From Dendrobates tinctorius (lineage: Eukaryota): a DNA stretch of 64,000 nt. Location of the stretch: positions 9,052,001 to 9,116,000 of the forward strand of contig NW_027361810.1 in the NCBI RefSeq assembly GCF_039654945.1, given 5' to 3'. Made by a program: the position numbers and the translations under genes. The notes under the pieces are model-generated. The model did not search any database, was not told where the DNA came from, and saw nothing but the letters and a program-made list of their open reading frames with translations. Shown piece by piece: positions 25,882 to 64,000 of this stretch (the stretch's first letter is position 1; the number at the start of each line of letters is the position of its first letter).

Positions 25882-26360
25882 GGCCTCTTTCACACTTCAG
25901 TCTTTTGACGTCAGTCGAAATCCGCCCTTTTTTTTAAAGAAAAAAAAAGGATCTGTCGTTCTTTTGGCGGAATCCGTTTTTTCCCATAGACTTGCATTAG
26001 TGGCGGTGGTCATCCGTTAATTGATGGATCCGTTGGAATTTCAGCGTCCGCCGTCTTGAGTAGACGGACATAGCAACGTTTCTTGTCTGAGTTGAAAAGA
26101 CGGACTGCAACGGATCCGTCGCAGTCCGCCGTTAGCTACTATGGAAGCCTATGGGCGTCGGATTCCGCTTTTTTTAAACTGAGCATGCCCGGAAGATGTT
26201 CCTTTCATTTTATTTAACCCCAAAACCCGTTCTGGCAAAGAAAAAAATCTCTCTCTCGACTGCTATTCCTTTGAATTTCAGACACTGCTGCAACACATCC
26301 GTTTTTTCACTCTTTGACAGTTTACAACTGACGTCAAAAGGCTGAAGTGTGAAAGAGGCC
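25882..26360. mobile_element. PIF/Harbinger-type MITE, family C-related
   Basis: TIR GGCCTCTTTCACACTTCAG; flanks TTA/TAA. Confidence 0.8.
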
Positions 26361-26389
26361 TAAGATACACTATGTCACATATAACACAT

Positions 26390-29300
26390 ATAGATACACA
26401 GCTCAGCAGTCAGCATCACACAGGAGAGGATTAGATACACGGCTCAGCAGTCAGCATCACACAGGAGAGGATTAGATACACGGCTCAGCAGTCAGCATCA
26501 CACAGGAGAGGATTAGATACACGGCTCAGCAGTCAGCATCACACAGGAGAGGATTAGATACACAGCTCAGCAGTCAGCATCACACAGGAGAGGATTAGAT
26601 ACACGGCTCAGCAGTCAGCATCACACAGGAGAGGATTAGATACACGGCTCAGCAGTCAGCATCACACAGGAGAGGATTAGATACACGGCTCAGCAGTCAG
26701 CATCACACAGGAGAGGATTAGATACACGGCTCAGCAGTCAGCATCACACAGGAGAGGATTAGATACACGGCTCAGCAGTCAGTATCACACAGGAGAGGAT
26801 TAGATACACGGCTCAGAAGTCAGTATCACACAGGAGAGGATTAGATACACGGCTCAGCAGTCAGTATCACACAGGAGAGGATTAGATACACGGCTCAGCA
26901 TTCAGTATCACACAGGATAGGATTAGATACACGGCTCAGCAGTCAGCATCACACAGGAGAGGATTAGATACACGGCTCAGCAGTCAGTATCACACAGGAG
27001 AGGATTAGATACACGGCTCAGCAGTCAGTATCACACAGGATAGGATTAGATACACGGCTCAGCAGTCAGCATCACACAGGAGAGGATTAGATACACGGCT
27101 CAGCAGTCAGTATCACACAGGAGATGATTAGATACACGGCTCAGCAGTCAGTATCACACAGGAGAGGATTAGATACACGGCTCAGCAGTCAGTATCACAC
27201 AGGAGAGGATTAGATACACGACTCAGCAGTCAGTATCACACAGGAGAGGATTAGATACACGGCTCAGCAGTCAGCATCACACAGGAGAGGATTAGATACA
27301 CGGCTCAGCAGTCAGTATCACACAGGAGAGGATTAGATACACGGCTCAGCAGTCAGCATCACACAGGAGAGGATTAGATACACGGCTCAGCAGTCAGCAT
27401 CACACAGGAGAGGATTAGATACACGGCTCAGCAGTCAGCATCACACAGGAGAGGATTAGATACACGGCTCAGCAGTCAGTATCACACAGGAGAGGATTAG
27501 ATACACGGCTCAGCAGTCAGTATCACACAGGATAGGATTAGATACACGGCTCAGCAGTCAGCATCACACAGGAGAGGATTAGATACACGAGTCAGCAGTC
27601 AGTATCACACAGGAGAGGATTAGATACACGGCTCAGCAGTCAGTATCACACAGGATAGGATTAGATACACGGCTCAGCAGTCAGTATCACACAGGAGAGG
27701 ATTAGATACACGGCTCAGCAGTCAGTATCACACAGGATAGGATTAGATACACGGCTCAGCAGTCAGCATCACACAGGAGAGGATTAGATACACAGCTCAG
27801 CAGTCAGCATCACACAGGAGAGGATTAGATACACGGCTCAGCAGTCAGTATCACACAGGAGAGGATTAGATACACGGCTCAGCAGTCAGTATCACACAGG
27901 ATAGGATTAGATACACAGCTCAGCAGTCAGTATCACACAGGAGAGGATTAGATACACGGCTCAGCAGTCAGTATCACACAGGATAGGATTAGATACACAG
28001 CTCAGCAGTCAGTATCACACAGGATAGGATTAGATACACGGCTCAGCAGTCAGCATCACACAGGAGAGGATTAGATACACGGCTCAACAGTCAGCATCAC
28101 ACAGGATAGGATTAGATACACAGCTCAACAGTCAGCATCACACAGGATAGGATTAGATACACAGCTCAGCAGTCAGGATCACGTGTATCTAATCCTCTCC
28201 TGTGTGATACTGACTGCTGAGCCGTGTATCTAATCCTCTCCTGTGTGATACTGACTGCTGAGCCATGTATCTAATCCTATCCTGTGTGATACTGACTGCT
28301 GAGCTGTGTATCTATATGTGTGTGGGGAATAAGGTGCAATCTAGTGGCCTCAATTGATGTTTTGGCTGTTTGTTTTGTTGCCTGTTAATCCTGGGTGATG
28401 AACCTACCAAATGAAATGTTTTATATTGTGTGAGGATCTATTCCTTTCATTTCTTTTCTTTGCTATATTTTTTTCCCCCCTATATTGATAGGGTGATATT
28501 GTGGGAGAGAGGGATAGTCCACGTTGAGTGGGGGCGCCAAAAAAACGTCTTTTAGGGTGCCAACCTCCACGGCAAGGAAGGAGTCAGTGAGGTATATTGC
28601 AGGGTTACTGCAGGCAAATTTATTAACACACAGGATAGGATTAGATACACGGCTCAGCAGTCAGTATCACACAGGATAGGATTAGATACACAGCTCAGCA
28701 GTCAGTATCACACATGATAGGATTAGATACACGGCTCAGCAGTCAGTATCACACAGGATAGGATTAGATACACAGCTCAGCAGTCAGTATCACACAGGAG
28801 AGGATTAGATACACAGCTCAGCAGTCAGTATCACACATGATAGGATTAGATACACGGCTCAGCAGTCAGTATCACACAGGATAGGATTAGATACACAGCT
28901 CAGCAGTCAGTATCACACATGATAGGATTAGATACACGGCTCAGCAGTCAGTATCACACAGGATAGGATTAGATACACAGCTCAGCAGTCAGTATCACAC
29001 AGGAGAGGATTAGATACACGGCTCAGCAGTCAGCATCACACAGGAGAGGATTAGATACACGGCTCAGCAGTCAGTATCACACAGGATAGGATTAGATACA
29101 CAGCTCAGCAGTCAGTATCACACAGGAGAGGATTAGATACACGGCTCAGCAGTCAGTATCACACAGGATAGGATTAGATACACAGCTCAGCAGTCAGTAT
29201 CACACAGGATAGGATTAGATACACGGCTCAGCAGTCAGTATCACACAGGAGAGGATTAGATACACAGCTCAGCAGTCAGTATCACACAGGAGAGGATTAG

Positions 29301-29634
29301 ATACACGGCTCAGCAGTCAGTATCACACAGGATAGGATTAGATACACAGCTCAGCAGTCAGTATCACACAGGATAGGATTAGATACACAGCTCAGCAGTC
29401 AGTATCACACAGGAGAGGATTAGATACACGGCTCAGCAGTCAGTATCACACAGGATAGGATTAGATACACAGCTCAGCAGTCAGTATCACACAGGAGAGG
29501 ATTAGATACACGGCTCAGCAGTCAGTATCACACAGGATAGGATTAGATACACAGCTCAGCAGACAGTATCACACAGGAGAGGATTAGATACACAGCTCAG
29601 CAGTCAGTATCACACAGGATAGGATTAGATACAC
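26390..29634. repeat. 41-bp satellite, interrupted by an inverted insert at 28183-28624
   Basis: gctcagcagtcagtatcacacaggagaggattagatacacg units. Confidence 0.95.
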
Positions 29635-47370: not shown

Positions 47371-47527
47371 AAATCTAAGGATCGCCTCTCACAGGAATTA
47401 TCGGACTGCATTATCTACTGTAAGAGCGTGCCCTTCGAGAGCTTCAAGCACTCCAGGACCAACTACAAGCCGTATGAGATGTCGTCCTTCACAGAGTATA
47501 AGGCTCGGAAGCTCATCAGAGAACCAG
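47371..47527 (+). CDS. PLCD4: PLCD4 exon, Y box start
   Basis: KSKDRLSQELSDCIIYCKSVPF...EMSSFTEYKARKLIREP. Confidence 0.95.
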
Positions 47528-47777
47528 GTGACAAATTATGGATGATGGGAGTTCTAGTACCGAAGTTCACTCAGTCCTGAGAACTTGCTTTGGATGATTA
47601 TATCCGCTGATTACTAGACCTGCTGTATACAGTATATCCGCTCTATAAGCAGTGGGAGCTCTCATTGCTATACACTTCAGTCAGTGATGATCTATGTTAT
47701 CCCATGGCCTACAACATCTGTGTATTCACTTGTAGACATTCTAGTCTTTAACTTTTGGGTGTTTTATTTTCTTGTAG

Positions 47778-47894
47778 GTAATGAATTTGTCCGACACAAC
47801 TCCTGTCAACTCACACGAGTTTACCCCACCGGTCTGAGGACCGACTCCTCCAATTACAACCCACAAGACATGTGGAATGTGGGATGTCAAATGG
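47778..47894 (+). CDS. PLCD4: PLCD4 exon, Y box; remaining Y/C2 exons lie beyond the window
   Basis: [38 protein letters not shown]. Confidence 0.96.
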
Positions 47895-47972
47895 GTAAAG
47901 TATTATTCGCGAGTTTCCTCAGTTTAATCAGATTTTGTGCAAATTTACACCATATCCCCAAAAAATACTACA

Positions 47973-48583
47973 GTACTGCCCCCTATGTACAAGAATATAA
48001 CTGCTATAATACTGCCCCTATGTACAAGAATATAACTACTATAATACTGCCCCCTATGTACAAGAATATAACTACTATAATACTGCCCCTATGTACAAGA
48101 ATATAACTACTATAATACTGCCCCTATATACAAGAATATAACTACTATAATACTGCTCCTATGTACAAGAATATAACTACTATAATACTGCTCCTATGTA
48201 CAAGAATATAACTACTATAATACTGCCCCTATGTACAAGAATATAACTACTATAATACTGCCGCTATGTACAAGAATATAACTACTATAATACTGCTCCT
48301 GTGTACAAGAATATAACTACTATAATACTGCCCCTATGTACAAGAATATAACTACTATAATACTGCCCCCTATGTACAAGAATATAACTACTATAATACT
48401 GCCCCTATGTACAAGACTATAGCTACTATAATACTGCTCCTATGTACAAGACTATAGCTACTATAATACTGCTTCTATGTACAAGAATATAACTACTATA
48501 ATACTGCTCCTATGTACAAGAATATAACTACTATAATACTGCCCCTATGTACAAGAATATAGCTACTATAATACTGCTCCTAT
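47973..48583. repeat. 35-bp satellite, left part
   Basis: tactgcccctatgtacaagaatataactactataa. Confidence 0.95.
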
Positions 48584-49258
48584 TGTAGGGATGTGACTCG
48601 CTCAGGTGCAGCGGGAGACAATCATGAGGCAGGTTCTTCCCAAAGTTCATGAGGTTTATTTGCTCCATAAACCATATATCTGCATATCACCAAAATAGCC
48701 TCTAGCTTAGGCACAAAAGAACATAAACGTCCGTGGCTTCAGACTCGGACCGAGAGTCTCAGCACATGCTGGGAGGTGTAGTCCTCCCCATATACAACTA
48801 ATATACACAGGCCAGGGCAATGTCCAGAGCAGCGCTGCATCTGCAGCCGCAGACACAGGAAGGCTTCTCCTTCCTTAGCACACAGGCCACTCTCTGTAGT
48901 GTCCCACCTGGACACATGGAAGTCTGTCCACACTCTGACAGACTCCCTCCACACTCTGACATGTGCCAAACACCTCAATTACATAGCCCTGTAACCACAC
49001 CCAAAGGGGATCACATGGCTATGACATCACCAAAGGTTGTATAGACACACAGGCTTCCCTGACACAGTGTAACAGAAAGATCAGCAGTACCTCTGCTGAT
49101 CAATACACCCTGGAGCCTGCATCCCAAGGCCACCCACCTTGAGACCCACAATGGTCATTTAGGACCCTGCTCCTGTTACCACACTGAATGTGCCTGTACA
49201 CCCGTCCTGGGACAGCCACACAGCGCCCCCTAGCCGACACAGTGGTAACTACACCACA
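48584..49258 (-). repeat. 3' LTR of the FXR1-bearing element
   Basis: Direct repeat of 52932-53606, about 3 mismatches seen; AATAAA on minus strand at 48655-48660. Confidence 0.95.
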
Positions 49259-50188
49259 TACCTCCCCCCTCTGTTCAAACTTGTGGGGTTGAACACATGA
49301 CATCACCCAGGTATCTTGAGACCTGGCACCCATGTCACCTTGCCCTACAAGTCGAGAGGACCATCTCCGTCTGTTTCGGTAGTCAAACTGCCTCATATTC
49401 ACGTTAGGCCTCCCCCGCCCCCAGCGGTCAGTATCTCGGCCTTGGGCTTTGGCCTTCCCGTCAACGTCCGTCAGTGTAATCAGACACTCTTTAGTCTCCA
49501 CCTGTTTGCAGTGCGCTCCGTCACCCGACCTTTCTCTCACCGGCCGGCTCTCCCAGTTCACACTGTCATGAGTCCCACGTCCAGCTGGGCCAACTGGCTG
49601 GTCTGAGTCTGACCCTCTGTCACTATGTCCACCACCGGGTCTCGTGCCTATGTTACTACGATTAGAACGGCCACTTGCGGACTCTCGACGTTCTTGCCTT
49701 CGACTACCTGTCCTTTCATTCCTTGGAGGATCCCTTCGGGTCCTTACACCTTGGGTTGGAGGTGGACGCCACCTGACGTTCTCTATCTGCTCATTCATCT
49801 GCAGTCGATCCTGTCGTAGCTGCTCAATCTCCTTCAGGTACGCTACCCGATATTCCAGGAGCATGCGAAGCTTCCCAATGCTTTCCACCGAACCAACCAC
49901 AATGGCAGGAACCATGTCAACTTCAATAACGGCTTGGATTTCACCAGCAGGTGGGATCCTCACTCTCTTCACACAGGACCGATTCACCATCTCCTGCATC
50001 ACCTTTCCAAGTCTGCCAACGACTTTCCCCACCAGATTTCTGGGTACCGGAATTATGTCTTCCACAAAGCCCAGCCGACTTTGTGCTTCCCTTGCAAGCT
50101 CCAGACGTCGAGCGGCTTTCCTATTACGCTCCACGAGCATCTGTTTCGTGCGGAGACATTGTAGGTGCATCTCCTTCAGGACAGCCAC
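49100..50188 (-). CDS. FXR1-derived KH-domain ORF (end of KH0, KH2, NES, RG-rich tail); in frame with the upstream ORF across one TAA
   Basis: MHLQCLRTKQML..RN; FVEDIIPVPRNLVGKVVGRLGKVMQE; MVP..VG..ESIG..LLEY..YLKEIEQLR..RLQ..EQ, all matching FXR1/FMR1-family motifs; no introns. Confidence 0.85.
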   Translation of the reverse strand: MAVLKEMHLQCLRTKQMLVERNRKAARRLELAREAQSRLGFVEDIIPVPRNLVGKVVGRLGKVMQEMVNRSCVKRVRIPPAGEIQAVIEVDMVPAIVVGSVESIGKLRMLLEYRVAYLKEIEQLRQDRLQMNEQIENVRWRPPPTQGVRTRRDPPRNERTGSRRQERRESASGRSNRSNIGTRPGGGHSDRGSDSDQPVGPAGRGTHDSVNWESRPVRERSGDGAHCKQVETKECLITLTDVDGKAKAQGRDTDRWGRGRPNVNMRQFDYRNRRRWSSRLVGQGDMGARSQDTWVMSCVQPHKFEQRGEVCGVVTTVSARGRCVAVPGRVYRHIQCGNRSRVLNDHCGSQGGWPWDAGSRVY

Positions 50189-50209
50189 CCTTCTCTCTGT
50201 GTCTTCCGT

Positions 50210-52102
50210 TTATGCCAGTATCACCAACTGGTCTGTTTCTGGTGCCCAGCTCACACTATAGGCCTTTACTGCCTTTTTAAAGGTCTCATGCACACCTTCG
50301 CTGGCACACGCTTCTCGCACGTCTTCGGGTACCTCCATCACGCACTTGAAGGTCATGGACTTGCTCTCATCCTGGACAGATGGCTCTGGGTTCCCCACGG
50401 ACACTTCCCTCAAGGTATCTGCCAAGACCGGGTGACTGTCTTGTGCAGCTCTTGGTTCACCATCTTCCTGAGATTTACAGTCTTCAGGACCCTTTTCCAA
50501 GATGGGCTTTGGCAGTTCTGCCTTGCTATCAGTCGGGCACGGCCGCTGTACGTCTTCACCCATCCACTTCTTCTGCAGAAGACCTTTTACTACTCCACTG
50601 AGTTCTTGCAGAACTTTATCTCGCTCCTCTGCCAGGTAGCGACGCTGATCCTCTCTCCTGAGAATCTCCTGTTGATGCTTCTCTTGGGTCTCTCTGAGCA
50701 CCTCCATATCTTCCAACAGGGTCTTGTTCATGGTTTTACATGCTGACAGGTGACCTCTGAGCTCAGAGACTTCCTTCTCCAGCTCATCCACTCTGTGCTC
50801 AGCTGCTTGCCTTAGGACTCTTTCCCGTTCGACATGTTCTGTTACAGTCTCCTTTATCAGCTGTATCTCATGATCTTGTTCTCTTTTGGCCAGCACGTGT
50901 CTCACCACTACCTCTTTAATTATATCATCAAAGGGTACCACTGGGTCAGTCACACCAGTCGAGTGAACCCTCCAGTTACCGTCCAGCACCAATGTGTCTA
51001 GTCCAGTAGTCTCATCTCCCAGCCCACCATCTGTCTTATCACGAGACCTCAGGTCCGTCAGTTGGGCAGATGTACTTCTTCCTCTGGTCAGTTCTACCTC
51101 TGACCTGTCCATGTCAGGAGCCGTCACTGTCTCAGTGTCTGCTTGTCCCACAGTCAAAGCATCTCCATCGTCAGACCAAACGTCATCAAACAAAAGAAAG
51201 TCCCGGCCCCTCTCCCAGGCATAGACTAAGTCCCGTGGTATTCCTCTACCTTGGCACTCACCACCTTTGGTCCCCTCAAACACTACTGTGTCTACTGCGT
51301 AGTTCACCGTGACCCCGTGTTTACAGCGAACCCTGATGTTTTTCTCTGTCAGAGAGAAAACGAGAGGCGTTCCTGTCAGAGTCACCTGACTCTCTGAGTC
51401 CAGCCGACCAAAGGCTCCTTCCCGGTGCAGCATCACTGTACACATCTGTGGCCCATCATTACTACCCGGAAAGGATACTCCACATTCTGAAAAAGACCTG
51501 CACATACACTGCGGTACTCCAGACATACCTACTGAGTCACCCAGTGCTGTCACTTCTTCACACTTGGCCCCTTTCTGGACCACCACCCCGCTTTGGGTTG
51601 CCACCCCAATTTTGGTCACCGCCCCCTTTTGGAACTCCACCCCTTTTTGGGTTACCACTCCAATTTGGGTCACCGCCCCCTTTTGGGACTCCACCCCTTT
51701 TTGGGTTACCACTCCAATTTGGGTCACCGCCCCCTTTTGGGTTTCCACCCCTTTTTGGGTTACCACTCCAATTTGGGTCACCGCCCCCTTTTGGGTCACC
51801 GCCCCCTTTTGGGATTTCCCCATGTCCGTCCTGCAGAACCTCTTAGGCCACAGTTCACACAGTACAGTTTGTCTTTTAACGATACCACACAAGTCTTTGC
51901 TGGCACCACCACAGCTCCTGCTGTCACTGATCACCGGCACCTCCGGCTGCTGTTCACACACATACACAGCGGCTGGTGTCACTGCAGCTCCTGCTGCGCC
52001 ATCTTCGTGGACCCGTCGATCCACCGGAAGCCGCTTGTCACCTTCGTAACCCCGCCGGGTTACTAGAAGCCGCTTGTCACCCTCAAAGATAAAAGAAACC
52101 AC
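50210..52102 (-). CDS. Upstream part of the element ORF: tandem-repeat region, coiled coil, then FXR1 KH0 (FKCVMEVPEDVREACA..FKKAV..PET.QL.IL)
   Basis: 630 open codons; last ~48 aa match FXR1; true start uncertain (GACATGG at 51112 is a good Kozak candidate). Confidence 0.7.
   Translation of the reverse strand: MVSFIFEGDKRLLVTRRGYEGDKRLPVDRRVHEDGAAGAAVTPAAVYVCEQQPEVPVISDSRSCGGASKDLCGIVKRQTVLCELWPKRFCRTDMGKSQKGAVTQKGAVTQIGVVTQKGVETQKGAVTQIGVVTQKGVESQKGAVTQIGVVTQKGVEFQKGAVTKIGVATQSGVVVQKGAKCEEVTALGDSVGMSGVPQCMCRSFSECGVSFPGSNDGPQMCTVMLHREGAFGRLDSESQVTLTGTPLVFSLTEKNIRVRCKHGVTVNYAVDTVVFEGTKGGECQGRGIPRDLVYAWERGRDFLLFDDVWSDDGDALTVGQADTETVTAPDMDRSEVELTRGRSTSAQLTDLRSRDKTDGGLGDETTGLDTLVLDGNWRVHSTGVTDPVVPFDDIIKEVVVRHVLAKREQDHEIQLIKETVTEHVERERVLRQAAEHRVDELEKEVSELRGHLSACKTMNKTLLEDMEVLRETQEKHQQEILRREDQRRYLAEERDKVLQELSGVVKGLLQKKWMGEDVQRPCPTDSKAELPKPILEKGPEDCKSQEDGEPRAAQDSHPVLADTLREVSVGNPEPSVQDESKSMTFKCVMEVPEDVREACASEGVHETFKKAVKAYSVSWAPETDQLVILA
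51570..51810. repeat. 18/54-bp tandem repeat inside the LTR element (reads QKGAVTQIGVVTQKGVE)
   Basis: Repeated ccaccccttttgggttaccactccaatttgggtcaccgccccctttgg-type units. Confidence 0.85.
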
Positions 52103-52931
52103 AAAAGCGCGCCCATAGGGCCTTACCAGTGCAGGTATAATGGGTTACGCAGCAATAATACAGGGTACTCACCCTTAATAGTTGTGTAAAGCCACAACTA
52201 CTGTATCCGCTTAGTCACATGCCATAAAGCTGCAGCAGGATGGTGTAGACAGACAGCGTCTGCTACCAATGCTCCCAGGGCAGATCCCTTAAAGAAAACA
52301 CCAGGTCCCTGTGCTGCGAGACCTTCGTGACCCCACTGAGCCACAGCAAGCACCTTCAGGTTTTGCAGAGGAAAAGAAAAAAAAAAACAAAAACACATGC
52401 ACAGTCTCTCACATGTCCTGTCCGTGTGCTGTTCAGGACGTACCGTCTCCACCTGAGACCGTCCAACACACAGGGCACACCGGGTGCTATTCAGGGAGCA
52501 GCCCTCCTCCCAGGGTTTCCCAACACACCGGCCTCACCAGGTCCAGGGGCTCAGCGGGTGCTCTTCAGGACATCCGTCTCCACTTGTTACTGCCCAACAC
52601 ACGCCTCACCAGGTCCAAGGTCATAGCACGTGCTTCAGGGCTCCTCCCAACACTGACCCTCCAGGACCTTGCTCACTGACCCCTCCAGGTACACAGTCTC
52701 TCACTGACCCTGGTCAGTGCAACACAGACTCCTGTCTGTTACCTGTGTCGGCCACACAGGTTCCTGGACGCCTCTTCTCCTCAGAGGTATCCCACAAATA
52801 TTAATACAGTCACTTTCTCTGACCTCGGTCAGTATTACTCACGGTTGTCAGACCGTCTGCTCTCCTGGCTCAGAATCGCCAGCGCTGCCACACGTGCTTC
52901 TGGGAGTCGCTGCCCGCAGTCTGTCACCAAT

Positions 52932-53606
52932 TGTAGGGATGTGACTCGCTCAGGTGCAGCGGGAGACAATCATGAGGCAGGTTCTTCCCAAAGTTCATGA
53001 GGTTTATTTGCTCCATAAACCATATATCTGCATATCACCAAAATAGCCTCTATCTTAGGCACAAAAGAACATAAACGTCCGTGGCTTCAGACTCGGACCG
53101 AGAGTCTCAGCACATGCTGGGAGGTGTAGTCCTCCCCATATACAACTAATATACACAGGCCAGGGCAATGTCCAGAGCAGCGCTGCATCTGCAGCCGCAG
53201 ACACAGGAAGGCTTCTCCTTCCTTAGCACACAGGCCACTCTCTGTAGTGTCCCACCTGGACACATGGAAGTCTGTCCACACTCTGACAGACTCCCTCCAC
53301 ACTCTCACATGTGCCAAACACCTCAATTACATAGCCCTGTAACCACACCCACAGGGGATCACATGGCTATGACATCACCAAAGGTTGTATAGACACACAG
53401 GCTTCCCTGACACAGTGTAACAGAAAGATCAGCAGTACCTCTGCTGATCAATACACCCTGGAGCCTGCATCCCAAGGCCACCCACCTTGAGACCCACAAT
53501 GGTCATTTAGGACCCTGCTCCTGTTACCACACTGAATGTGCCTGTACACCCGTCCTGGGACAGCCACACAGCGCCCCCTAGCCGACACAGTGGTAACTAC
53601 ACCACA
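52932..53606 (-). repeat. 5' LTR of the FXR1-bearing element
   Basis: Direct repeat of 48584-49258; followed on the minus strand by the PBS. Confidence 0.95.
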
Positions 53607-55890
53607 CTATGTACAAGAATATAACTACTATAATACTGCTCCTATGTACAAGAATTTAACTACGATAATACTGCTCCTATGTACAAGAATATAACTACTA
53701 TAATACTGCCCCCTATGTACAAGAATATAACTACTATAATACTGCCCCTATGTACAAGAATATAACTACTATAATACTGCTCCTATGTACAAGAATATAA
53801 CTACTATAATACTGCTCCTATGTACAAGAATATAACTACTATAATACTGCCCCTATGTACAAGAATATAACTACTATAATACTGTCCCTATGTACAAGAA
53901 TATAACTACTATAATACTGCTCCTATGTACAAGAATATAACTACTATAATACTGCTCCTATGTACAAGAATATAACTACTATAATACTGCCCCTATGTAC
54001 AGGAATATAACTACTATAATACTGCTTCTATGTACAAGAATATAACTACTATAATACTGCTCCTATGTACAAGAATATAACTACTATAATACTGCTCCTA
54101 TGTACAAGAATATAACTACTATAATACTGCTCCTATGTACAAGAATATAACTACTATAATACTGCTCCTATGTACAAGAATATAACTACTATAATACTGC
54201 TCCCTATGTACGAGAATATAACTGCTATAATACTGCTTCTATGTACAAGAATATAACTACTATAATACTGCTCCAATATACAAGAATATAACTACTATAA
54301 TACTGCTCCTATGTACAAGAATATAACTACTATAATACTGCTCCCTATGTACGAGAATATAACTACTATAATACTGCTCCTATGTACAAGAATTTAACTA
54401 CTATAATACTGCTCCTATGTACAAGAATATAACTACTATAATACTGCCCCTATGTACAAGAATATAGCTACTATAATACTGCCCCTATGTACAAGAATAT
54501 AACTACTATAATACTGCCCCTATGTACAAGAATATAACTGCTATAATACTGCCCCTATGTACAAGAATATAACTACTATAATACTGCCCCCTATGTACAA
54601 GAATATAACTACTATAATACTGCCCCTATGTACAAGAATATAACTACTATAATACTGCCCCTATGTACAAGAATATAACTACTATAATACTGCCGCTATG
54701 TACAAGAATATAACTACTATAATACTGCTCCTATGTACAAGAATATAACTACTATAATACTGCTCCTATGTACAAGAATATAACTACTATAATACTGCCC
54801 CTATGTACAAGAATATAACTACTATAATACTGCCCCCTATGTACAAGAATATAACTACTATAATACTGCCCCTATGTACAAGACTATAGCTACTATAATA
54901 CTGCTTCTATGTACAAGAATATAACTACTATAATACTGATCCTATGTACAAGAATATAACTACTATAATACTGCCCCTATGTACAAGAATATAACTACTA
55001 TAATACTGCTCCTATGTACAAGAATATAACTACTATAATACTGCCCCTATGTACAAGAATATAACTACTATAATACTGCCCCTATGTACAAGAATATAGC
55101 TACTATAATACTGCTCCTATGTACAAGAATATAACTACTATAATACTTCTCCTATGTACAAGAATTTAACTACTATAATACTGTTCCTATGTACAAGAAT
55201 ATAACTACTATAATTCTGCTCCCTATGTACAAGAATATAACTACTATAATACTGCTCCTATGTACAAGAATATAACTACTATAATACTGCTCCTATGTAC
55301 AAGAATATAACTACTATAATACTGCTCCCTATGTACGAGAATATAACTGCTATAATACTGCTTCTATGTACAAGAATATAACTACTATAATACTGCTCCT
55401 ATGTACAAGAATATAACTACTATAATACTGCTCCTATGTACAAGAATATAACTACTATAATACTGCTCCCTATGTACGAGAATATAACTACTATAATACT
55501 GCTCCTATGTACAAGAATTTAACTACTATAATACTGCTCCTATGTACAAGAATATAACTACTATAATACTGCTCCTATGTACAAGAATATAACTACTATA
55601 ATACTGCTCCCTATGTACGAGAATATAACTGCTATAATACTGCTTCTATGTACAAGAATATAACTACTATAATACTGCTCCTATGTACAAGAATATAACT
55701 ACTATAATACTGCTCCTATGTACAAGAATATAACTACTATAATACTGCTCCCTATGTACGAGAATATAACTGCTATAATACTGCTTCTATGTACAAGAAT
55801 ATAACTACTATAATACTGCTCCAATATACAAGAATATAACTACTATAATACTGCTCCTATGTACAAGAATATAACTGCTATAGTACGGCC
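53607..55890. repeat. 35-bp satellite, right part
   Basis: Same unit; register resumes exactly after the CTAT TSD. Confidence 0.95.
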
Positions 55891-55973
55891 CCCATAATAA
55901 TAATAAATTTTATTTCTATAGCGCCGACATATTCCGCAGCACTTTACATTTCAGAGGGGATTTGTACAGACAA
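55884..55973 (-). mobile_element. L2 LINE 3' end; continues at 63885-64000 on the other side of the Gypsy element
   Basis: (AAT)n tail followed by tttatttctatagcgcc..atattccgcagcactttaca; resumes with gagggccctgctcgcaagcttaca; recognised from recalled amphibian L2 3' ends. Confidence 0.65.
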
Positions 55974-57250
55974 ATCACTAATGCTCTAGGATTATCCCAC
56001 CGCTGCCACCAAATATGTGAGGAACGGCGGACCGCTATCGCCAAATTGTGACGGACAGCAGACCCTGTGCCACCAATATGTCACGATCCCACCACCGACA
56101 CTGGTTTGTCAGCGGACGGAGGGACGTGACGCACTGCCGGAACACGGCTATCACAGGCACAGTGGGGGCTTATCTTAGTTATCCCACCACTGGCACCATG
56201 TGACAAAAATACAGCAAGCTAATCTTGCTCTGACAATTTACCGCAGGGGGGTATTTTGGATGCCCCACCACTGCTAACAACCTTCCAAGAACTGCGGAAA
56301 TTTATGTATATCCCACTTTCTAAGTTCCACTTTGGAACTCGCAGCTCTCCGGCGCCCCCCTTACCCTCAGGTCAGTCAGGGAACTGCACATAGGATAAGT
56401 AGTCACCAGACGGGCTGCTTGTTGTGCACGGGCAACTAGACTACTGCAGTAAGAGAATTATCAATGCCGTGGCCTCAACCACTCCTTCAGCAATATAAGA
56501 CCCTTCTGTACTGCCAGCTAGCCTCGCCAGCCACGCACACCAAGCTGCCACAAGCTCCTGGTTTCTCCACTTAAGTTATAGACTTAATGGAGGGGTTCGA
56601 AGCCAACCTGAACAGTAGCGTAATTATCTAAAACAAGGCGCATAGTTCGTTTCCTAGAGCATGGAGACAGAGTTAATAGATTTTAGAATTTATTCTCACG
56701 AAATGGGCGGTCTGGTGAGGTCCAACCTCCCTTCTCTCTCAGTTATAACTTAACTAAAAAGGTTATGATAACCATATCTTAATGGGGAAGCTCGTATGAA
56801 CTCACCCATGTTTCCCAGTGTAACAAACCCAACAAGAAAACATCAAGAATGCACTAGATAGGACACTCCATTTGGGAGCAATCCATATCTCAATTTCTGG
56901 AAGTCCGAGAATCGTGAAACTCAGGGGTTTAGAAAGCTGGCTTTGTGCCCTTTGCAGGAATGTGAGTTTCATATCTCTGTCACAAGCGAAGTGCGCGCTA
57001 GGCTTCTTTTAATATTTCCTATACCTGTATTCAAGCTTCATGGTTTCAGAACAAAGCAATGCTTTCTCTTGCAGGGGGGAAGGCTGCGAGAGGAAATGGA
57101 CGGTTTCATGTTACCAGCAAGCAAAGAGCTGATAAGGAGGGGGGGTTGCAGCTACATCACAGGCTTGTCTCCTCAGTGTATAGCAATGGGAGATTCTAGA
57201 AAGTTCTGCAAAATCATATCTTACATTACACCTCCCCCCTTTAGAGGGCG

Positions 57251-59158
57251 CTACGGAGGCATTACCTGTCGGTAATCGGCCATGCACACCTCAGCGGGTT
57301 CGCCCCGGCAGGACAACCCATCGGCATTGCCATGTTCACTGCCCTTTTTGTGTTGTACAGTAAAGTCGTACTGTTGAAGGGCAAGGCTCCAGCGGAGCAA
57401 CCATCCATTGGTTACGGATACTGTGTGCAACCAGCTCAGAGGGTTGTGGTCGGTTACCACCGTGAAGGTGCGCCCGTACAGGTAGGGCTGCAAACGTTGC
57501 AATGCCCACACCATGGCCAGACACTCCTTCTCGATGGTCGAGTATGCCACTTCTCTCTGCAAAAGTTTCCGGCTCAGGTACAACACGGGGTGCTCCTGGT
57601 TCCCCGAGTCGACCTGGCTGAGCACAGCACCGAGGCCAAACTCGCTGGTGTCGGTCTGTACCAGAAACAGGCGACTGCTGTTGACTACTCTCAACACTGG
57701 AGAGCTGCACAGGGCTGCTTTCAAAGCTTGGAAAGCCGCCTCAAAGTCATCTGTCCAGTTGACTGTTTGGGGTAGCCTCTGCTTGGTGAGGTCCGTCAAG
57801 GGTTTTGCAAGGGCGCTATAGTCCTGCACGAACCGCCTATAGAACCCTGCAGTGCCCAAGAAGGACTTCACCTGTTTCTTGGTCCTGGGGGTGGGCCAGG
57901 ACGCAATTGCGTCCACCTTTTCTGGCTCTGACCTCATGCAACCCCCGCCAACCCGGTGCCCCAGGTACTGGACCTCGCTCATGCCCATCTGGCACTTTCC
58001 TGGCTTGATAGTCAGGCCTGCCTGGTGAAGACGCTTGAGCACCTCCTGGAGATGCTGAAGGTGTTCCTCCCAGGTGGAACTGAAGATGGCGATGTCGTCC
58101 AAGTACGCCACCGCGTACTCCTCCAGTCCCCGAAGCAGGTGGTTGACCATCTGCTGGAAAGTGGCAGGGGCATTTTTCATGCCGAAGGGCATGACCGTGG
58201 ACTTGTACAGTCCAAAGGGGGTGATAAAGGCGGATTTCTCCTGCGCCTCAGGGCTCAGGGGAATCTGCCAGTATCCACGACTCAGATCCATGATGGATAT
58301 GTACCTTGCTTTTGCCAACCGCTCAAGCAGATCCTCGATGCGCGGCATCTGGTAGGCATCAGAGGTTGTGATGGCGTTGAGACCCCTGTAGTCCACGCAG
58401 AACCGGGTGGTTCGATCCTTTTTAGGCACAAGGACTACAGGTGAGGCCCACTCGCTTTTTGACCATCGAATCACCCCCAGCCTTAACATCTCATTAATCT
58501 CTTGGCGCATGACTTGTTGCACCTCCTCAGAGATCCAATAAGGTGTTCGCTGTAGTGGGGTGTGATTCCCGGTGTCCACCTCATGAACCGCTAACTCCGT
58601 CCTCCCAGGTCGGTTGGTGAACACGGCCCGGACGGGTTCCAGGGCTTCCACCAACTGCGACCGCTGGGATACGGTTAGCAAACCACTTATCTCCATGTCC
58701 TCAATGGACCCATTGGCCTTGGCTTGGGCCAGCATGTCCAGGAGGGGATCTTCCTCCCCATCCTCGGGCAGGTTGCAGACCGGTAGGACGCAAGCTTCAC
58801 GTTCGTGGGGCGCCTTCAGCATATTGACGTGAAAGGCCTTGCGCCTACCCCGAGCATGGTCAAGCGTGACCACGTAGGTGAACCGGTTGAGCTGTTGGTG
58901 GACGACGTATGGGCCTTCCCAGGCTGCCTGAAGCTTATCCGTTGGTACGGGGACCAGCACCGATACCTTTTGACCCACCTGGTAGGTCCGCTCCCGGGCG
59001 TTCTGGTCGTACCAGTGCTTCTGGTCAGCCTGAGCCTGCGTCATGTTGTCATGCACCAATTGCGTCAAGGTCTGCATCTTGTCACGGAAGCGCATGACAT
59101 AATCCACGATGGACACTTCTGTGGGGTTTGGCTCATCTTCCCAGGATTCTCTTATCAA
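57251..59158 (-). pseudogene. Gypsy pol fragment: integrase C-terminus (GPY), reverse transcriptase, RNase H
   Basis: WEGPY, RFCVDYR, MPFGMKNAPATFQ, YLDD, TDTSEFGLGAVL, EKECLA, TDHNPL, NADGLS. Confidence 0.93.
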
Positions 59159-60003
59159 CCCAAGGGGTCCCCGGACTCGCCTGCCATACAGGAGCTCGAA
59201 GGGGGAGAACCGGTCGAGGCCTGCGGAACTTCTCTGTAAGCGAACAGCAGGTGTGGGAGGTACCGCTCCCAGTCGCGACGTTGGGTCTCAACCAGCATGC
59301 GGAGCATCTGTTTGAGGGTACCGTTGAAGCGTTCACACAAACCATTAGTCTGTGGGTGATACGCACTCGATACCAGGTGCTTCACCTGAATTTTCTCACA
59401 GAGAGCCTCCATTAGGCGAGACATGAATTGGGTCCCTTGATCAGTAAGCATCTCCCTGGGAAATCCTACGCTTAAAATGATGGTCACCAGTGAGTCAGCC
59501 ACCTTATCTGCCCTGGTTGAAGACAGAGCTACTGCCTCTGGGTACCGGGTAGCGTAGTCTACCACGGTGAGAATGTATTGCTTTCCAGAGCTGCTGGGGA
59601 TGGCCAGCGGGCCTACAATGTCCACCGTGATTCTCTGGAAAGGCTCCTCTATCACCGGCAAAGGGATAAGGGGAGCCTTAAGAGCAGGCCCCGCCTTACC
59701 CACTTTTTGAAAGGTGTTACAGGAGCGGCAGTATTGTGTTACATCTGTCCCCATCTTGGGCCAATAGAAGTGTTGAGACAGCCGTGCCTTTGTTTTGCTG
59801 ATCCCCAAGTGTCCAGCGAGTGGAATCTCATGGGCAATCCGCAACAACTCAGTTCTGAACTGTAGGGGGACGACTAGCTGTCTTTCCCTCAACCACTCCT
59901 TTTGGGGATCTCCGGGTACTGTCTCCCGGTACAACCTTCCTCGTTCCCAGAACACCCTCTCCTTATCAGGCTCGGAGGTGGGCGTCTCGGCGAGGTGTCT
60001 CAA
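59155..60003 (-). pseudogene. Gypsy integrase (HHCC zinc finger + DDE core), frameshifted from RT
   Basis: AHEIPLAGHLG..FYWP..C; VDIVGPL; TDQGTQF; YHPQTNGLCERFNGTLK. Confidence 0.92.
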
Positions 60004-60779
60004 TTTCTCCAGGCTTGCATCTGAGTGCAGAGCAGCCTGGAACTACTTGCTGGAGGCTGCCAGAAGTGACGTCAGGGACCCTTCCTTACTGGGACCCTCT
60101 AGAACCGGCTCTGGGTTCACCTCTGGTTCAGTCTCTCCTGTAGCAGAAGAGGGTCCAGAAGACAGTGCGCTACCTGCGATCTGGGCACTCTGACTGCGTG
60201 TGACAGCTGCTATGTATGCTGTCTCCCTGGGGATTTCTACAGACCCACCAGTCGGTGCTGCTATGGGCTCTTCCTCCCCATCCACCCCCAACACTTCAGG
60301 AGCAGTGCTACTTATGGGCCAGTTACCTTCCTCGGTGGCACTGGTCAGTTGCATGGCATTACCTTCCTCATGGTCCCCATGCACCTCCCCATTTCCTTGA
60401 GCACCGTTGCTTGCTCCTGCCAGGGATTCCTCAGCCGTCTCACTCCGTAGAGTGACAGAGCTGAGCACTTCGGTACCTGTGGACACATCTACCGTTTCAA
60501 AGAAATGGTTAACAGGTTCCGTCGGCACAGATACATCATCATCATCATCATTCCTAGGAAAAGAATGGTTATCAGATTGCTTTGGTAAAGTTACATCACC
60601 ATCATTCCTGGGGAGAGAATGGTTGTTAGTGGCATCATTACTCATCAAGGCATTTGCAGGTAACACATTCAGTTTCCTGTCATCATCATCATCATCATCA
60701 TCAGGGTTAACATTGCCCTTATTATCAAATTGGGGAGGGGTGTCAGGGACATAGTATGCAACCATCCTCCCCAAGTCAG

Positions 60780-62183
60780 TTCCCAATAAAACATCAGTGG
60801 GCAGGTTTTCGGACACTCACACTTCCCTCACCCCGCTCCCAGCACGCCAATCAAGGAATACCCGGGCCACTGGCAAGAGACAGCGGGTACCCCCAATCCC
60901 GGTGACAGTCAGGGTTTTCCCCTCAACAAACTCTTCAGGGGCCGCCAGTCCAGGACGGATGAGGGTTCGTTCAGCCCCGGTGTCCTTGAGGCCTGAAGCA
61001 AGACGGGCCCCCACCTGGACAGGTTGAACGTTGTCGTCAATCCTCCCAACCACACCTCCCACCAAAAGAACAGAGGCGTTGGGCCCAGAAGCCTTGGCTG
61101 TGGGTTTCTTCGGCTTTTCCGGACAGGTGGAACGGAGGTGACCAGTCCGATCGCAGTTGTAACACTTGCGACTGTCAGTAATAGGCCTGGCGTTGGTATC
61201 TGGGCCAGGGCCTCCGGAGTGACGGCTAGCTGGGGCACTGGGGTTGGTTGCAGGCTTTCCAGCTGGTGGTGAATGGCCTCCGCGTCTCTGGCTTCCGGTT
61301 GGCCTCGTAGTTGTCGGCGATCTGAGCCGCTTTGTCAGCTTTCGTTGGTTCGCGGTCCAGGATGAACTGTCGGACCTCAGCTGGGCAGAGATGCAGGAAC
61401 TGGTCTTTGATCATCAGGTCCCGTAGCTGCTTAAAGGAATCAGTCCTTGCACCACATCACTATAGCTATCGTGTGGGCCACGTTGGAGGTTCCGGAACTT
61501 CTTTCAGTATACCTCAGGTGTCAGTCGGTATTTGGCGATCAGAGCCTGCTTGATGGCATCATAGTCGTCGTCTTCTGACGGCAGAGAAGCAAACGCCTCC
61601 AGAGCTTTGCCTTTTAGCCCTGGAGTCAAGTACCTGGCCCATTGGACCTTATCCAGCCGGTACTGTCGGCAGGCTTTCTCAAAGGCTCGCAGAAACGTGT
61701 CCAAGTCCCCATCCTTTTCCATCATGGGAAAATGCTCTGGCCGGGGTTTAGGAGTCTGGACGCTGCTGGGCTCACTGCTTCGGGTTGTGGGGGTGGAGCA
61801 CCTCCAGTTCATGGGCCCTCTGCGCCTCGCGCTCAGCTCGCTGCTCTGCTCTCTCCGCCTCTGCTCGGCTTGCTGCTCCTCTCTTTCCCGAGCTTGCTGG
61901 ATCAGTGTCATACGGCCCTCGCGGTCTTCGGCAGGGAGAGTGTCCAAGGCCGCTTGCAGGTAGGGGTCCAGCGTGCTCTGGTTGAATGTGGGGCCAGTGC
62001 TCAGGAGTGGAGCCTCTGCTGCAGCCCCATTGTCACTTGGGCCAACTTCTGCACCCGCTGGACTCTGGGTGTTGTCCAGCTGCACCAGAGCCACGATCAA
62101 TTGATCTCTGGTTTTGCTTGTGGCGTCAATGCATACTGCAGCAAGGTTTTCCTTTTTCTGCTGTCTGTACCAGGGTTCTCCTT
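60780..62183 (-). pseudogene. Fragmented gag (SCAN-like domain, zinc knuckle region) and aspartic protease
   Basis: DLDTFLRAFEK..W..L..G.A..A..YD.IK.AL..Y.LT.E.Y; DQFL..P.EVR.FI..REP..A..AD.Y; DTGAERTLI; several frameshifts. Confidence 0.85.
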
Positions 62184-63884
62184 TTGCCGCCATGGTTGCC
62201 AAATAAAAGATAGAAAAGAAAAACGAAGAAAAGGGAGGGAATACTTGTACGTACACAAAAATGTTTCAGGACTAGTAACCACTGAGTCTGTTCTCCAAAA
62301 CCTATGATTCAGGATTCCCGCAGGAACCTTGCAGGATTTTAGTGAGAGGAATGATTGCTCAAACCAAATCACTAATGCTCTAGGATTATCCCACCGCTGC
62401 CACCAAATATGTGAGGAACGGCGGACCGCTGTCGCCAAATTGTGACGGACAGCGGACCCTGTGCCACCAATATGTCACGATCCCACCACCGACACTGGTT
62501 TGTCAGCGGATGGAGGGACGCGACGCACTGCTGGCACACGGCTATCACAGGCACGGTGGGGGCTTATTTTAGTTATCCCATCACTAGCACCATGTGACAA
62601 AAATACAGCAAGCTAATCTTGCTCTGACAATTTACCGCAGGGGGGTATTTTGGATGCCCCACCACTGCTAACAACCTTCCAAGAACTGCGGGGATTTATG
62701 TATATCCCACTTTCTCAGTTCCACTTTGGAACTCGCAGCTCTCCGGCGCCCCCCCTTACCCTCAGGTCAGTCAGGGAACTGCCCCTAGGATAATTAGTCG
62801 CCGGACGGGCTGCTTGCTGTGCACGGGCAACTAGACTATTGCAGTAAGGGAATTATCAATGCCGTGGCCTCAACCACTCCTTCAGCAATATAAGACCCTT
62901 CTGTACTGCCAGCTAGCCTCGCCAGCCGTGCACACCACGCTGCCACAAGCTCCTGGTTTCTTCACTTAAGTTATAGACTTAATGGAGGGGTTCGAAGCCA
63001 ACCCGAACAGTAGCGTAATTATCTAAAAAAAAGGCGCATAGTTCGTTTCCTAGAGCATGGAGACAGAGCTAATAGATTTTATCATTTATTCCCAAAAGAA
63101 TGCGGGCAGTGATTACACAGATAAAAGTTGCTATAAAGTTGAGACGTTACATATGTACAAATACAAATATAAAACAAAGTAAATGAAAGAACAGAAAGTA
63201 ACACTCACATGTGCGTAGGCAGACCATGTGGCTGGGGGAGGGGCGCTTAACCAAACGTCCCCACTCATCGGCATGTCTCTCTGGCAGGAGGACTCCAGCT
63301 GAACTGACTGGAATTTGGTAGGGAATACCTATAGCCTAGGGTCGGTGACTTCACGAAATGGGTGGTCTGGTGAGGTCCAACCCCCCTTCTCTCTCAGTTA
63401 TAACTTAACTAAAAAGGTTATGATAACCATATCTTAATGGGGAAGCTCGTATGAACTCACCCATGTTTCCCAGTGTAACAAACCCAACAAGAAAACATCA
63501 AGAATGCACTAGATAGGACACTCCATTTGGGAGCAATCCATATCTCAATTTCTGGAAGTCCGAGAATCGTGAACCTTAGGGGTTTAGAAAGCTGGCTTCG
63601 TGCCCTTTACAGGAATGTGAGTATCATATCTCTGTCACAAGCGAAGTGCGCGCTAGGCTTCTTTTAATATTTCCTATACCTGTATTCAAGCTTCATGGTT
63701 TCAGAACAAAGCAATGCTTTCCCTTGCAGGGGGGAAGGCTGCGAGAGGAAATGGACGGTTTCATGTTACCGGCAAGCACAGAGCTGATAAGGAGGGGGGT
63801 TGCAGCTACATGACAGGCTTGTCTCCTCAGTGTATAGCAATGGGAGATTCTAGAAAGTTCTACAAAATCATATCTTACATTACA

Positions 63885-64000
63885 ATAAAAATAATCACAT
63901 AGATTATAACAAATACCAAGAGGAATGAGGGCCCTGCTCGCAAGCTTACAGTCTATAAGGAAAGAGGTAGACACGAAAGGTGGGTGGTAACAGTTGCCCT
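63885..64000 (-). mobile_element. L2 LINE fragment (continuation)
   Basis: ccaagaggaatgagggccctgctcgcaagcttacagtcta motif. Confidence 0.6.

Follow-up and report, generated by a model that had tools for sequence, protein, structure and literature searches.

We describe a long terminal repeat (LTR) element of the frog Dendrobates tinctorius whose single open reading frame (ORF) is built around a captured part of the host gene FXR1. The element lies on the minus strand of a 64,000-nt stretch of contig NW_027361810.1 (positions 9,052,001 to 9,116,000), which is called the window below and to which all coordinates given without a contig refer. Its LTR anatomy, the capture of FXR1, the subsequent loss of the KH1 domain, and selection on the retained KH0 domain, CC1 helix, KH2 domain, and CC2 helix are established by the observations that follow. 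We further suggest, at nearly an even chance, that the family carries its own FXR1 mimic, reduced step by step (no Agenet domains at capture, KH1 lost later, and the nuclear export signal, NES, last), which would hijack or blunt host FXR1. The parts of the element are as follows.

48584-53606, minus strand: the whole LTR element, 5,023 bp
53607..53610, partner 48580-48583, no strand: 4-bp target-site duplication (TSD), within a 41-bp satellite
52932..53606, minus strand: 5' LTR, 675 bp, TG...CA, three mismatches to the 3' LTR
52912..52929, minus strand: primer-binding site (PBS), of the variant form in the window copy
49100..51823, minus strand: single ORF, 907 codons counted from the first Met common to other copies, broken by one stop in the window copy
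51590..51815, minus strand: N-terminal peptide repeat of the QKGAVT type, variable in length, also found in KH1-retaining copies
51170..51442, minus strand: relic of a retrotransposon aspartyl protease, DSE in the window copy, DSG in older subfamilies and Ranitomeya
50558..50890, minus strand: coiled-coil-like segment under codon constraint
50108..50353, minus strand: KH0 domain with the CC1 helix, derived from FXR1 exons 5-7, KH0 overlaid on FMRP 4qvz with a root-mean-square deviation of 1.0 A over 76 columns
50210..50212, minus strand: in-frame stop within KH0, private to this copy (0 of 20 fetched copies of the subfamily have it)
50089..50098, minus strand: KH1 deletion junction, 9 nt of exon 8 (50090-50098) followed by exon 9 from its nucleotide 19 (from 50089)
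49889..50068, minus strand: KH2 domain, GxxG loop at 50006-50017, Met at host position 304
49775..49888, minus strand: CC2 helix (host 341-378), L351 retained, NES pattern altered
49259..49774, minus strand: Arg/Ser-rich tail from FXR1 exons 12-14, frame kept, codon-position bias absent
49259..49272, minus strand: polypurine tract (PPT), just before the 3' LTR
48584..49258, minus strand: 3' LTR, 675 bp, into which the final 159 nt of the ORF extend

The internal region of 3.7 kb holds this one ORF. The minus-strand frame is open from 52144 to 49100, and its single interruption is the stop at 50210-50212, which was absent from the preliminary description of this DNA. The protease relic, likely inactive in the window copy judging by its DSE triplet, gave a Pfam match to RVP on relatives only (E 0.13-0.17), has an Atlas score of 0.95 for RVP, and has chordate SCAN/integrase polyproteins as structure neighbors. 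Assignment to the endogenous retroviruses was rejected, as Pfam scans of six ORF products detected no gag, pol or env.

The captured part originates from spliced FXR1 mRNA. The host FXR1 gene is located on contig C60, with exons 5-14 all bordered by AG/GT, and the element is intron-free across FXR1 junctions 5/6, 6/7, 7/8, 9/10, 10/11, and 11/12; junction 13/14 is also crossed, as seen from the protein match. In the phylogenetic tree, constructed for 35 of the 92 extracted copies (hand-picked to cover the groups) on 528 shared columns with the KH1 columns removed, all element copies form one clade (100/99), which is sister to host FXR1 and stands apart from FMR1 and FXR2. DNA identity of most copies is 58-71% to FXR1, 48-58% to FMR1, and 45-52% to FXR2, and the donor named in the preliminary description is thus upheld. 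The host FXR2 gene itself (loci L170-L171, G000:C2:836900-840700) has a high GC content and very short introns, and it has diverged furthest among the paralogues.

Both limits of the capture could be approached. At the 3' side, older copies match the host tail to about residue 550 and more weakly to about residue 607. At the 5' side, the copies that retain KH1 show a DNA match to exon 5 for ~45 nt upstream of F127 (20-23 of 39 positions, p <= 0.001), followed by chance level, which places the start of capture near FXR1 residue 114, within an exon and just past the second Agenet domain. No Agenet remnant was detected at E 1 in 95 element loci and five extended neighborhoods. The absence of the Agenet pair, as described previously, is therefore confirmed, but not its removal by cutting: since the FXR1 match begins at residue 114, the pair was never captured. 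At host residue 243, Dendrobates and Ranitomeya have Leu, and 17 other listed proteins and the five KH1-retaining copies have Gln; this single site suggests that the capture predates the Dendrobates-Ranitomeya split.

As the preliminary description had it, KH0 (Pfam PF17904, E 2.8e-20) runs in frame into KH2 (phmmer match to FMRP 2qnd, E 5e-19), and its estimate of about 60 missing amino acids including KH1 proved accurate, since exactly 60 residues, FXR1 214-273, are absent relative to the host gene of the same genome. The deletion comprises 180 nt, from nucleotide 10 of exon 8 through nucleotide 18 of exon 9; it leaves three codons of exon 8 and takes six codons of exon 9, and the Lys codon that precedes both deletion ends in the host means that the junction may slide by one codon. 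It is not private to the window copy, being common to hundreds of copies and to Ranitomeya proteins. A genome search with host exon 8 yielded FXR1, FMR1, FXR2, and five decayed intron-free copies retaining KH1, and a search seeded with one of the latter found no further KH1-retaining copies. These five copies branch first in the tree, and a single clade (100/99) unites all KH1-less copies; the N-terminal repeat and the protease relic were found in two of the five, and an LTR piece in three. The 9 nt that follow exon 7 match the exon 8 start of KH1-retaining copies in at least 7 of 9 positions in 17 of 24 rows of mixed groups, four of them being identical, and in the window subfamily the match is 7/9, compared with 2/9 for the exon 9 alternative. 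These junction counts still include six duplicate loci and three misaligned rows, which were removed before the per-site residue counts given below.

The branching order and the junction remnant indicate that KH1 was lost inside the element, after the capture, and a template switch during reverse transcription is the likely cause of the deletion. The preliminary description had instead supposed that an exon-skipped mRNA was captured, which is contradicted by the five early-branching copies with KH1 and by deletion ends lying 9 and 18 nt off the exon borders. The modified version, in which an FXR1 mRNA lacking exon 8 was captured independently of the KH1-retaining copies, is very improbable. 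It could draw on the fact that the deletion ends lie no more than 9 and 18 nt from the borders of exon 8 and on the tendency of fast-evolving rows to be misgrouped in a tree, but a precise join of exon 7 to exon 9 is not what is seen (9 nt of exon 8 remain and six exon 9 codons are gone), and the N-terminal repeat, the protease relic, and part of the LTR are common to the KH1-retaining copies. The latter (loci L146-L150) have themselves lost the KH1 GTHG motif, have G301 of KH2 replaced and I304 changed to Thr, and have thus taken a path opposite to that of the successful branch. Locus L147 (G000:C308:773500-783499) is a nested insertion, with a KH1-less copy ~1.2 kb from, and apparently within, a KH1-retaining copy.

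Between subfamilies, dN/dS amounts to 0.20-0.42 at dS 0.65-2.1 (Nei-Gojobori method, natural copies), and thus codon substitution indicates that the element protein is under purifying selection. Copies were chosen by protein similarity, a bias that is greater within groups than between them. One pair spanning two young subfamilies gave a dN/dS of 0.30 (95% interval 0.20-0.47). In comparisons of the FXR part with five second-subfamily copies, differences amount to 0.19-0.21 at second and 0.41-0.46 at third codon positions, and with CpG sites excluded the respective values are 0.16-0.17 and 0.38-0.41. A codon bias is also observed in the upstream coiled coil and, more weakly, in the protease relic; in the 5' leader and the tail it is absent. 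Gaps in the ORF are all multiples of three in 3 of 5 pairs. By module, uncorrected pN/pS equals 0.35 for KH0, 0.39 for CC1, 0.52 for KH2, and 0.40 for CC2, with all intervals below 0.7.

At the level of single residues, 54 of 182 sites are kept in all four KH1-less groups, including G298, G301, N202, and L351; N202 and L351 are mostly kept overall. Of the KH1-less copies, 68 of 78 keep the KH2 GxxG loop, and none of the five KH1-retaining copies does. The reported retention of this loop as GRLG, and that of a hydrophobic Met at the position equivalent to FMRP I304, both hold in 21/21 copies of the window subfamily. The NES, previously described as intact, is not: its second leucine (host L366) is Gln in 21/21 copies of the window subfamily and in 16/16 of the next one, so that it is replaced in 37/37 copies of the two young subfamilies. 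The NES of FMRP has been mapped to 423-YLKEVDQLRLERLQI-437 (PMC5358978). What survives in the window subfamily is the CC2 helix, and not the NES pattern. Among the proposed echoes of the FXR1 C-terminus, SDSDQ is genuine (older subfamilies match host tail 485-552 with E down to 2e-12), NRRRWSSR is not (the host arginine run past ESDQTV aligns elsewhere), and the RG content is reduced, the tail of protein P0002 having 5 RG and 0 RGG compared with 11 RG and 2 RGG in the host.

The family is large. An exact 26-nt pattern over the KH0-KH2 junction has 378 matches in genome G000 for one subfamily alone, and a degenerate version has 678, with no match for either reversed control; the 5,900 candidates seen at first look were rejected as a copy count, as they are not copies. 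The second subfamily occupies all 150 scored rows at >=87%, and a third subfamily, with a further three residues deleted, numbers dozens of copies. Twenty young copies were fetched from the best matches, a sample biased towards good matches. Both ends were found in 18 of these 20, each with its own 4-bp duplication; together with the window copy, 19/19 copies with both ends found show paired LTRs, TG...CA termini, and a 4-bp TSD, with 0-4 LTR mismatches per copy, and ends were not found in 2 of 21. The ORF is uninterrupted over 900-943 codons, with the same end, in 10 of the 20, two copies ending early and eight being broken upstream. Among copies L031-L050 with near-identical ORFs, two LTR length classes (~580 and 675 bp) occur, and their target sites are often AT-rich or simple repeats. 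At G000:C225:7471005-7484044, the element ORF is present four times in tandem with a spacing of ~4.2 kb.

Among named proteins, the closest come from Dendrobates tinctorius, at 98% over the FXR part, and from Ranitomeya, at 61-66%. The Ranitomeya relatives, known here from annotated proteins, share the KH0-KH2 join. NCBI labels these family proteins as uncharacterized, restin homolog, or fxr1-like. Among 1.84 billion representatives, full-length KH1-less matches were exclusively dendrobatid, an absence elsewhere that hinges on annotation. KH1-less proteins of a sturgeon (P0108), a sea cucumber (P0136), and a sea urchin (P0062) were rejected, as they retain the Agenet domains and have the appearance of partial gene models. 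In an aphid protein annotated as FXR1-like (P0013), the KH0-KH1-KH2 block is tandemly duplicated. Contigs from four sequencing runs of unrecorded type cover all 30 bins of the element, which is uninformative on transcription, and no clear splice joint was seen in them.

The element is non-autonomous. No reverse transcriptase (RT) or integrase was detected inside elements in 40 loci or five extended neighborhoods with the Gypsy ORFs of the window as queries; three such matches in the 40 loci lie before the 5' LTR (L154), in the flank (L034), and antisense upstream of ORF parts (L157). In 4 of 19 young copies the PBS is a perfect complement of the tRNA-Ala(AGC) 3' end, and 15 of 19 have the variant form; the matching form was also found at the head of the second subfamily. 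Coexistence of two forms in a young subfamily is expected if the primer tRNA overwrites the PBS in reverse transcription. Genome-wide, the tRNA-Ala 3' pattern has 623 matches, most of those listed falling in a tandem array with ~2.3-kb spacing (G000:C250:10383170-10682650). A protein search for the parent element with the protease relic gave family members only, and the top matches checked in the genome were family copies as far as they could be assigned. A separate, young-looking Gypsy element occupies positions 55900-63900 of the window, minus strand, with integrase before RT, a zinc knuckle, and a protease, and it is interrupted by stops and frameshifts. Its gene order is Gmr1-like. It has no match to the protease relic of the captured-FXR1 element and is probably not the helper, because its PBS looks like tRNA-Leu.

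AlphaFold2 modeling of a 215-residue fragment of a natural unbroken copy (pLDDT 92, pTM 0.66) predicted KH0, a 44-residue helix spanning the junction, KH2, and the CC2 helix, in this order. In complex with host FXR1 112-382 the score was 0.67, compared with 0.00 for the best of three controls; for the mark applied, the pass rate is 39 of 65 among solved eukaryotic pairs that have no similar earlier structure, and 2 of 126 among unrelated pairs. Contacts agreed by >=88% between runs, with a partner pLDDT of >=78. The predicted interface sets CC1 of the element against CC2 of the host, and heteromeric CC1-CC2 pairing is reported to be needed for FXR1 dimers and the FXR1 network (PMC10635158). 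The KH2 fold and the contact with host FXR1 on which the preliminary description relied are thus both predicted by modeling. The pass shows likeness to the native pair rather than continued binding by the element protein, and the model supports such binding as a prediction.

To account for these observations, we put forward, at somewhat under an even chance, that the protein of this non-autonomous family pairs with host FXR1 and ties its own RNA to FXR1 assemblies in germ cells. Under this adaptor model, a spliced FXR1 mRNA would have been captured once, by template switching in reverse transcription, and KH1 would have been removed later by an in-frame deletion inside the element, which would be copied by an autonomous Gypsy helper with tRNA-Ala priming. 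The ORF would be translated in the germ line, its product would pair with host FXR1 via the predicted CC1-CC2 contact, and KH2 together with the Arg-rich tail would bind the element's own RNA in cis. FXR1 assemblies might then raise the stability, translation or packaging of the element RNA, and with them the chance of its being copied. We favor action in cis, since selection would most easily maintain the ORF of an element dependent on borrowed enzymes if the protein benefits its own RNA. A parallel is provided by FXR1 condensates, which depend on L351 and bring in translation machinery for coronavirus RNA (PMC11001562).

Several results weigh against this model. KH2, the presumed RNA-binding module, is the least constrained of the four by pN/pS, and the RGG box is gone from the P0002 tail. 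In human cells, the KH1 point mutation G266E alone is reported to lower mRNA binding and to break the FXR1 network (PMC10635158), and therefore a KH1-less protein may bind RNA poorly, which would favor a decoy. The complex test is also passed through likeness by close relatives of a true partner (10 of 12 in an older run), and the predicted interface sites show no significant excess of host likeness over the other positions of these helices (p 0.09 for CC1, 0.37 for CC2, and 0.11 together). No autonomous partner was found among 30 fetched PBS matches, 28 of which were family members and two unrelated sequences. Finally, DNA upstream of the capture point in KH1-retaining and KH1-less copies is not significantly alike (z 0.4-1.8 over shuffles in five pairs), so that the case for a single capture rests on the tree and on the parts shared elsewhere.

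The dominant-negative action proposed in the preliminary description may occur, and an adaptor that binds RNA would explain the kept KH2 GxxG loop no less well. In the dominant-negative scheme, which we regard as unlikely though far from negligible, the element protein would pair through CC1-CC2 with FXR1 or FMR1 as a decoy lacking the Agenet pair and KH1, and the mixed dimers would be defective in binding RNA or in contacting Argonaute/PIWI proteins, so that retrotransposon silencing in the cell would be relaxed, to the benefit of the element and its helper. It draws on the same predicted fold and complex as the adaptor model. Mutations in KH1 and KH2 disrupt the FXR1 network (PMC10635158), loss of Drosophila dFmr1, which binds Aubergine and Piwi, raises transposon transcripts (PMC5454977), and FXR1, FXR2, and FMR1 co-purify with LINE-1 ORF1p from mouse testis (PMC10289378). 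Moreover, both GxxG loops are altered in the KH1-retaining copies, as if RNA binding were disfavored early in that branch. However, it is the loop-keeping branch that prevailed (68 of 78 KH1-less copies, the broken branch having five), a benefit in trans would be shared with ORF-less copies and would select the ORF more weakly, and silencing of LTR elements by FXR1 in the vertebrate germ line was not found in the literature examined. An RNA-level mechanism through piRNAs was ruled out by the ~63% identity to the host.

Rather improbable is a self-assembling scaffold, in which CC1 and CC2 would pair among element proteins, with host FXR1 not a partner, and the product would coat element RNA or enter helper particles via the protease relic. 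Both helices are present and constrained in one chain, the codon bias extends to the upstream coiled coil and more weakly to the relic, and interface residues have drifted about as much as their neighbors, as expected if the helices co-adapted; nevertheless, in the models CC1 of the element still scores with CC2 of the host. We give a poor chance to a passenger or host-serving retrocopy, where the codon signal would reflect the need for an open frame or a few copies serving the frog. Half of the fetched young copies (10/20) have an ORF that is broken or stops prematurely, the tail keeps its frame but lacks codon-position bias, and NCBI annotates some copies as genes. On the other hand, an open frame alone would not yield a dN/dS of 0.2-0.4 limited to the folded parts, and the constraint acts on branches between subfamilies, each of which spread by LTR insertion, with TSDs of its own.

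That LTR elements capture genes is known, and the evolutionary case made here is strong, with a mechanism that we infer. In the LTR-mediated retroduplications of animals, for example the Drosophila CG17604_r family cited in PMC8277862, a spliced host mRNA likewise lies between LTRs and is amplified by further transposition, whereas the present element fuses the captured part in frame to a pol relic and has hundreds of copies, several subfamilies, two genera, a domain deletion, and purifying selection. Compared with FXR1, its donor, and with FMR1 and FXR2, the element has KH0, CC1, KH2 with GxxG, and CC2, but it lacks the Agenet pair, KH1, and the RGG box, has a changed NES in the young subfamilies, and carries N-terminal retrotransposon parts. 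Coronavirus Nsp3 offers another parallel of a parasite engaging FXR1 condensates: the Nsp3-binding region of FXR1, between KH2 and the disordered tail, is kept in the element (PMC11001562), whereas viruses recruit FXR1 by motifs of their own and the element encodes a piece of FXR1.

Gmr1-like Gypsy derivatives of the LARD/TRIM type have TG...CA LTRs, a 4-bp TSD, a tRNA PBS, and a PPT, and no RT or integrase. The element shares these features, and its relic is nearest in structure to chordate SCAN/integrase polyproteins, but unlike that type it keeps one long constrained ORF with a host gene as the core. Transposon tools directed at silencing-linked host pathways include the VANC proteins of Arabidopsis, which act in transposon counter-defense, and the nxf2 fragment reportedly captured by Drosophila TART-A, which is said to act through piRNAs and to need near identity. 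The TART-A tool is likewise a captured host fragment; in contrast, the DNA of the present element is ~63% identical to the host and selection acts on its protein.

In the literature on FXR1 with LTR elements or frogs, no prior description of an FXR1-capturing LTR family was found among the matches listed, and the main text of the Dendrobates tinctorius genome preprint nowhere mentions FXR1 (10.1101/2023.11.06.565769). The captured gene is the sole conserved product of the element, a protein selected through several waves of spread, and its donor has a fly counterpart that takes part in transposon silencing and is itself recruited by viruses. The family thus provides a natural deletion series, in which a genomic parasite keeps KH0, CC1, the KH2 loop, and CC2 of FXR1 and drops the rest, and it makes testable in frogs whether vertebrate FXR proteins restrain or assist retrotransposons. 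If the proposed mimicry is real, a transposon would be encoding a mimic of a fragile X protein, there would be evidence for control of retrotransposons by FXR1 in the germ line of a vertebrate, and the family would be a candidate cause of part of the LTR load in poison-frog genomes. In any case, 'fxr1-like' gene models in dendrobatid annotations should be treated with caution, as they can be transposon copies.

In the window, the element is inserted in a 41-bp satellite ~700 bp past a plus-strand phospholipase C exon, and it is probably located in a phospholipase C intron. Exons of this gene were identified at 47380-47900 (PI-PLC-Y, E 1.4e-14), and both LTR elements of the window apparently lie antisense within one of its introns. 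Arrays of the 41-bp satellite extend over 47970-48583 and 53607-55890, and a further array at 26250-29500 (near 26-29 kb) comprises 68 overlapping 300-nt copies and an inverted block.

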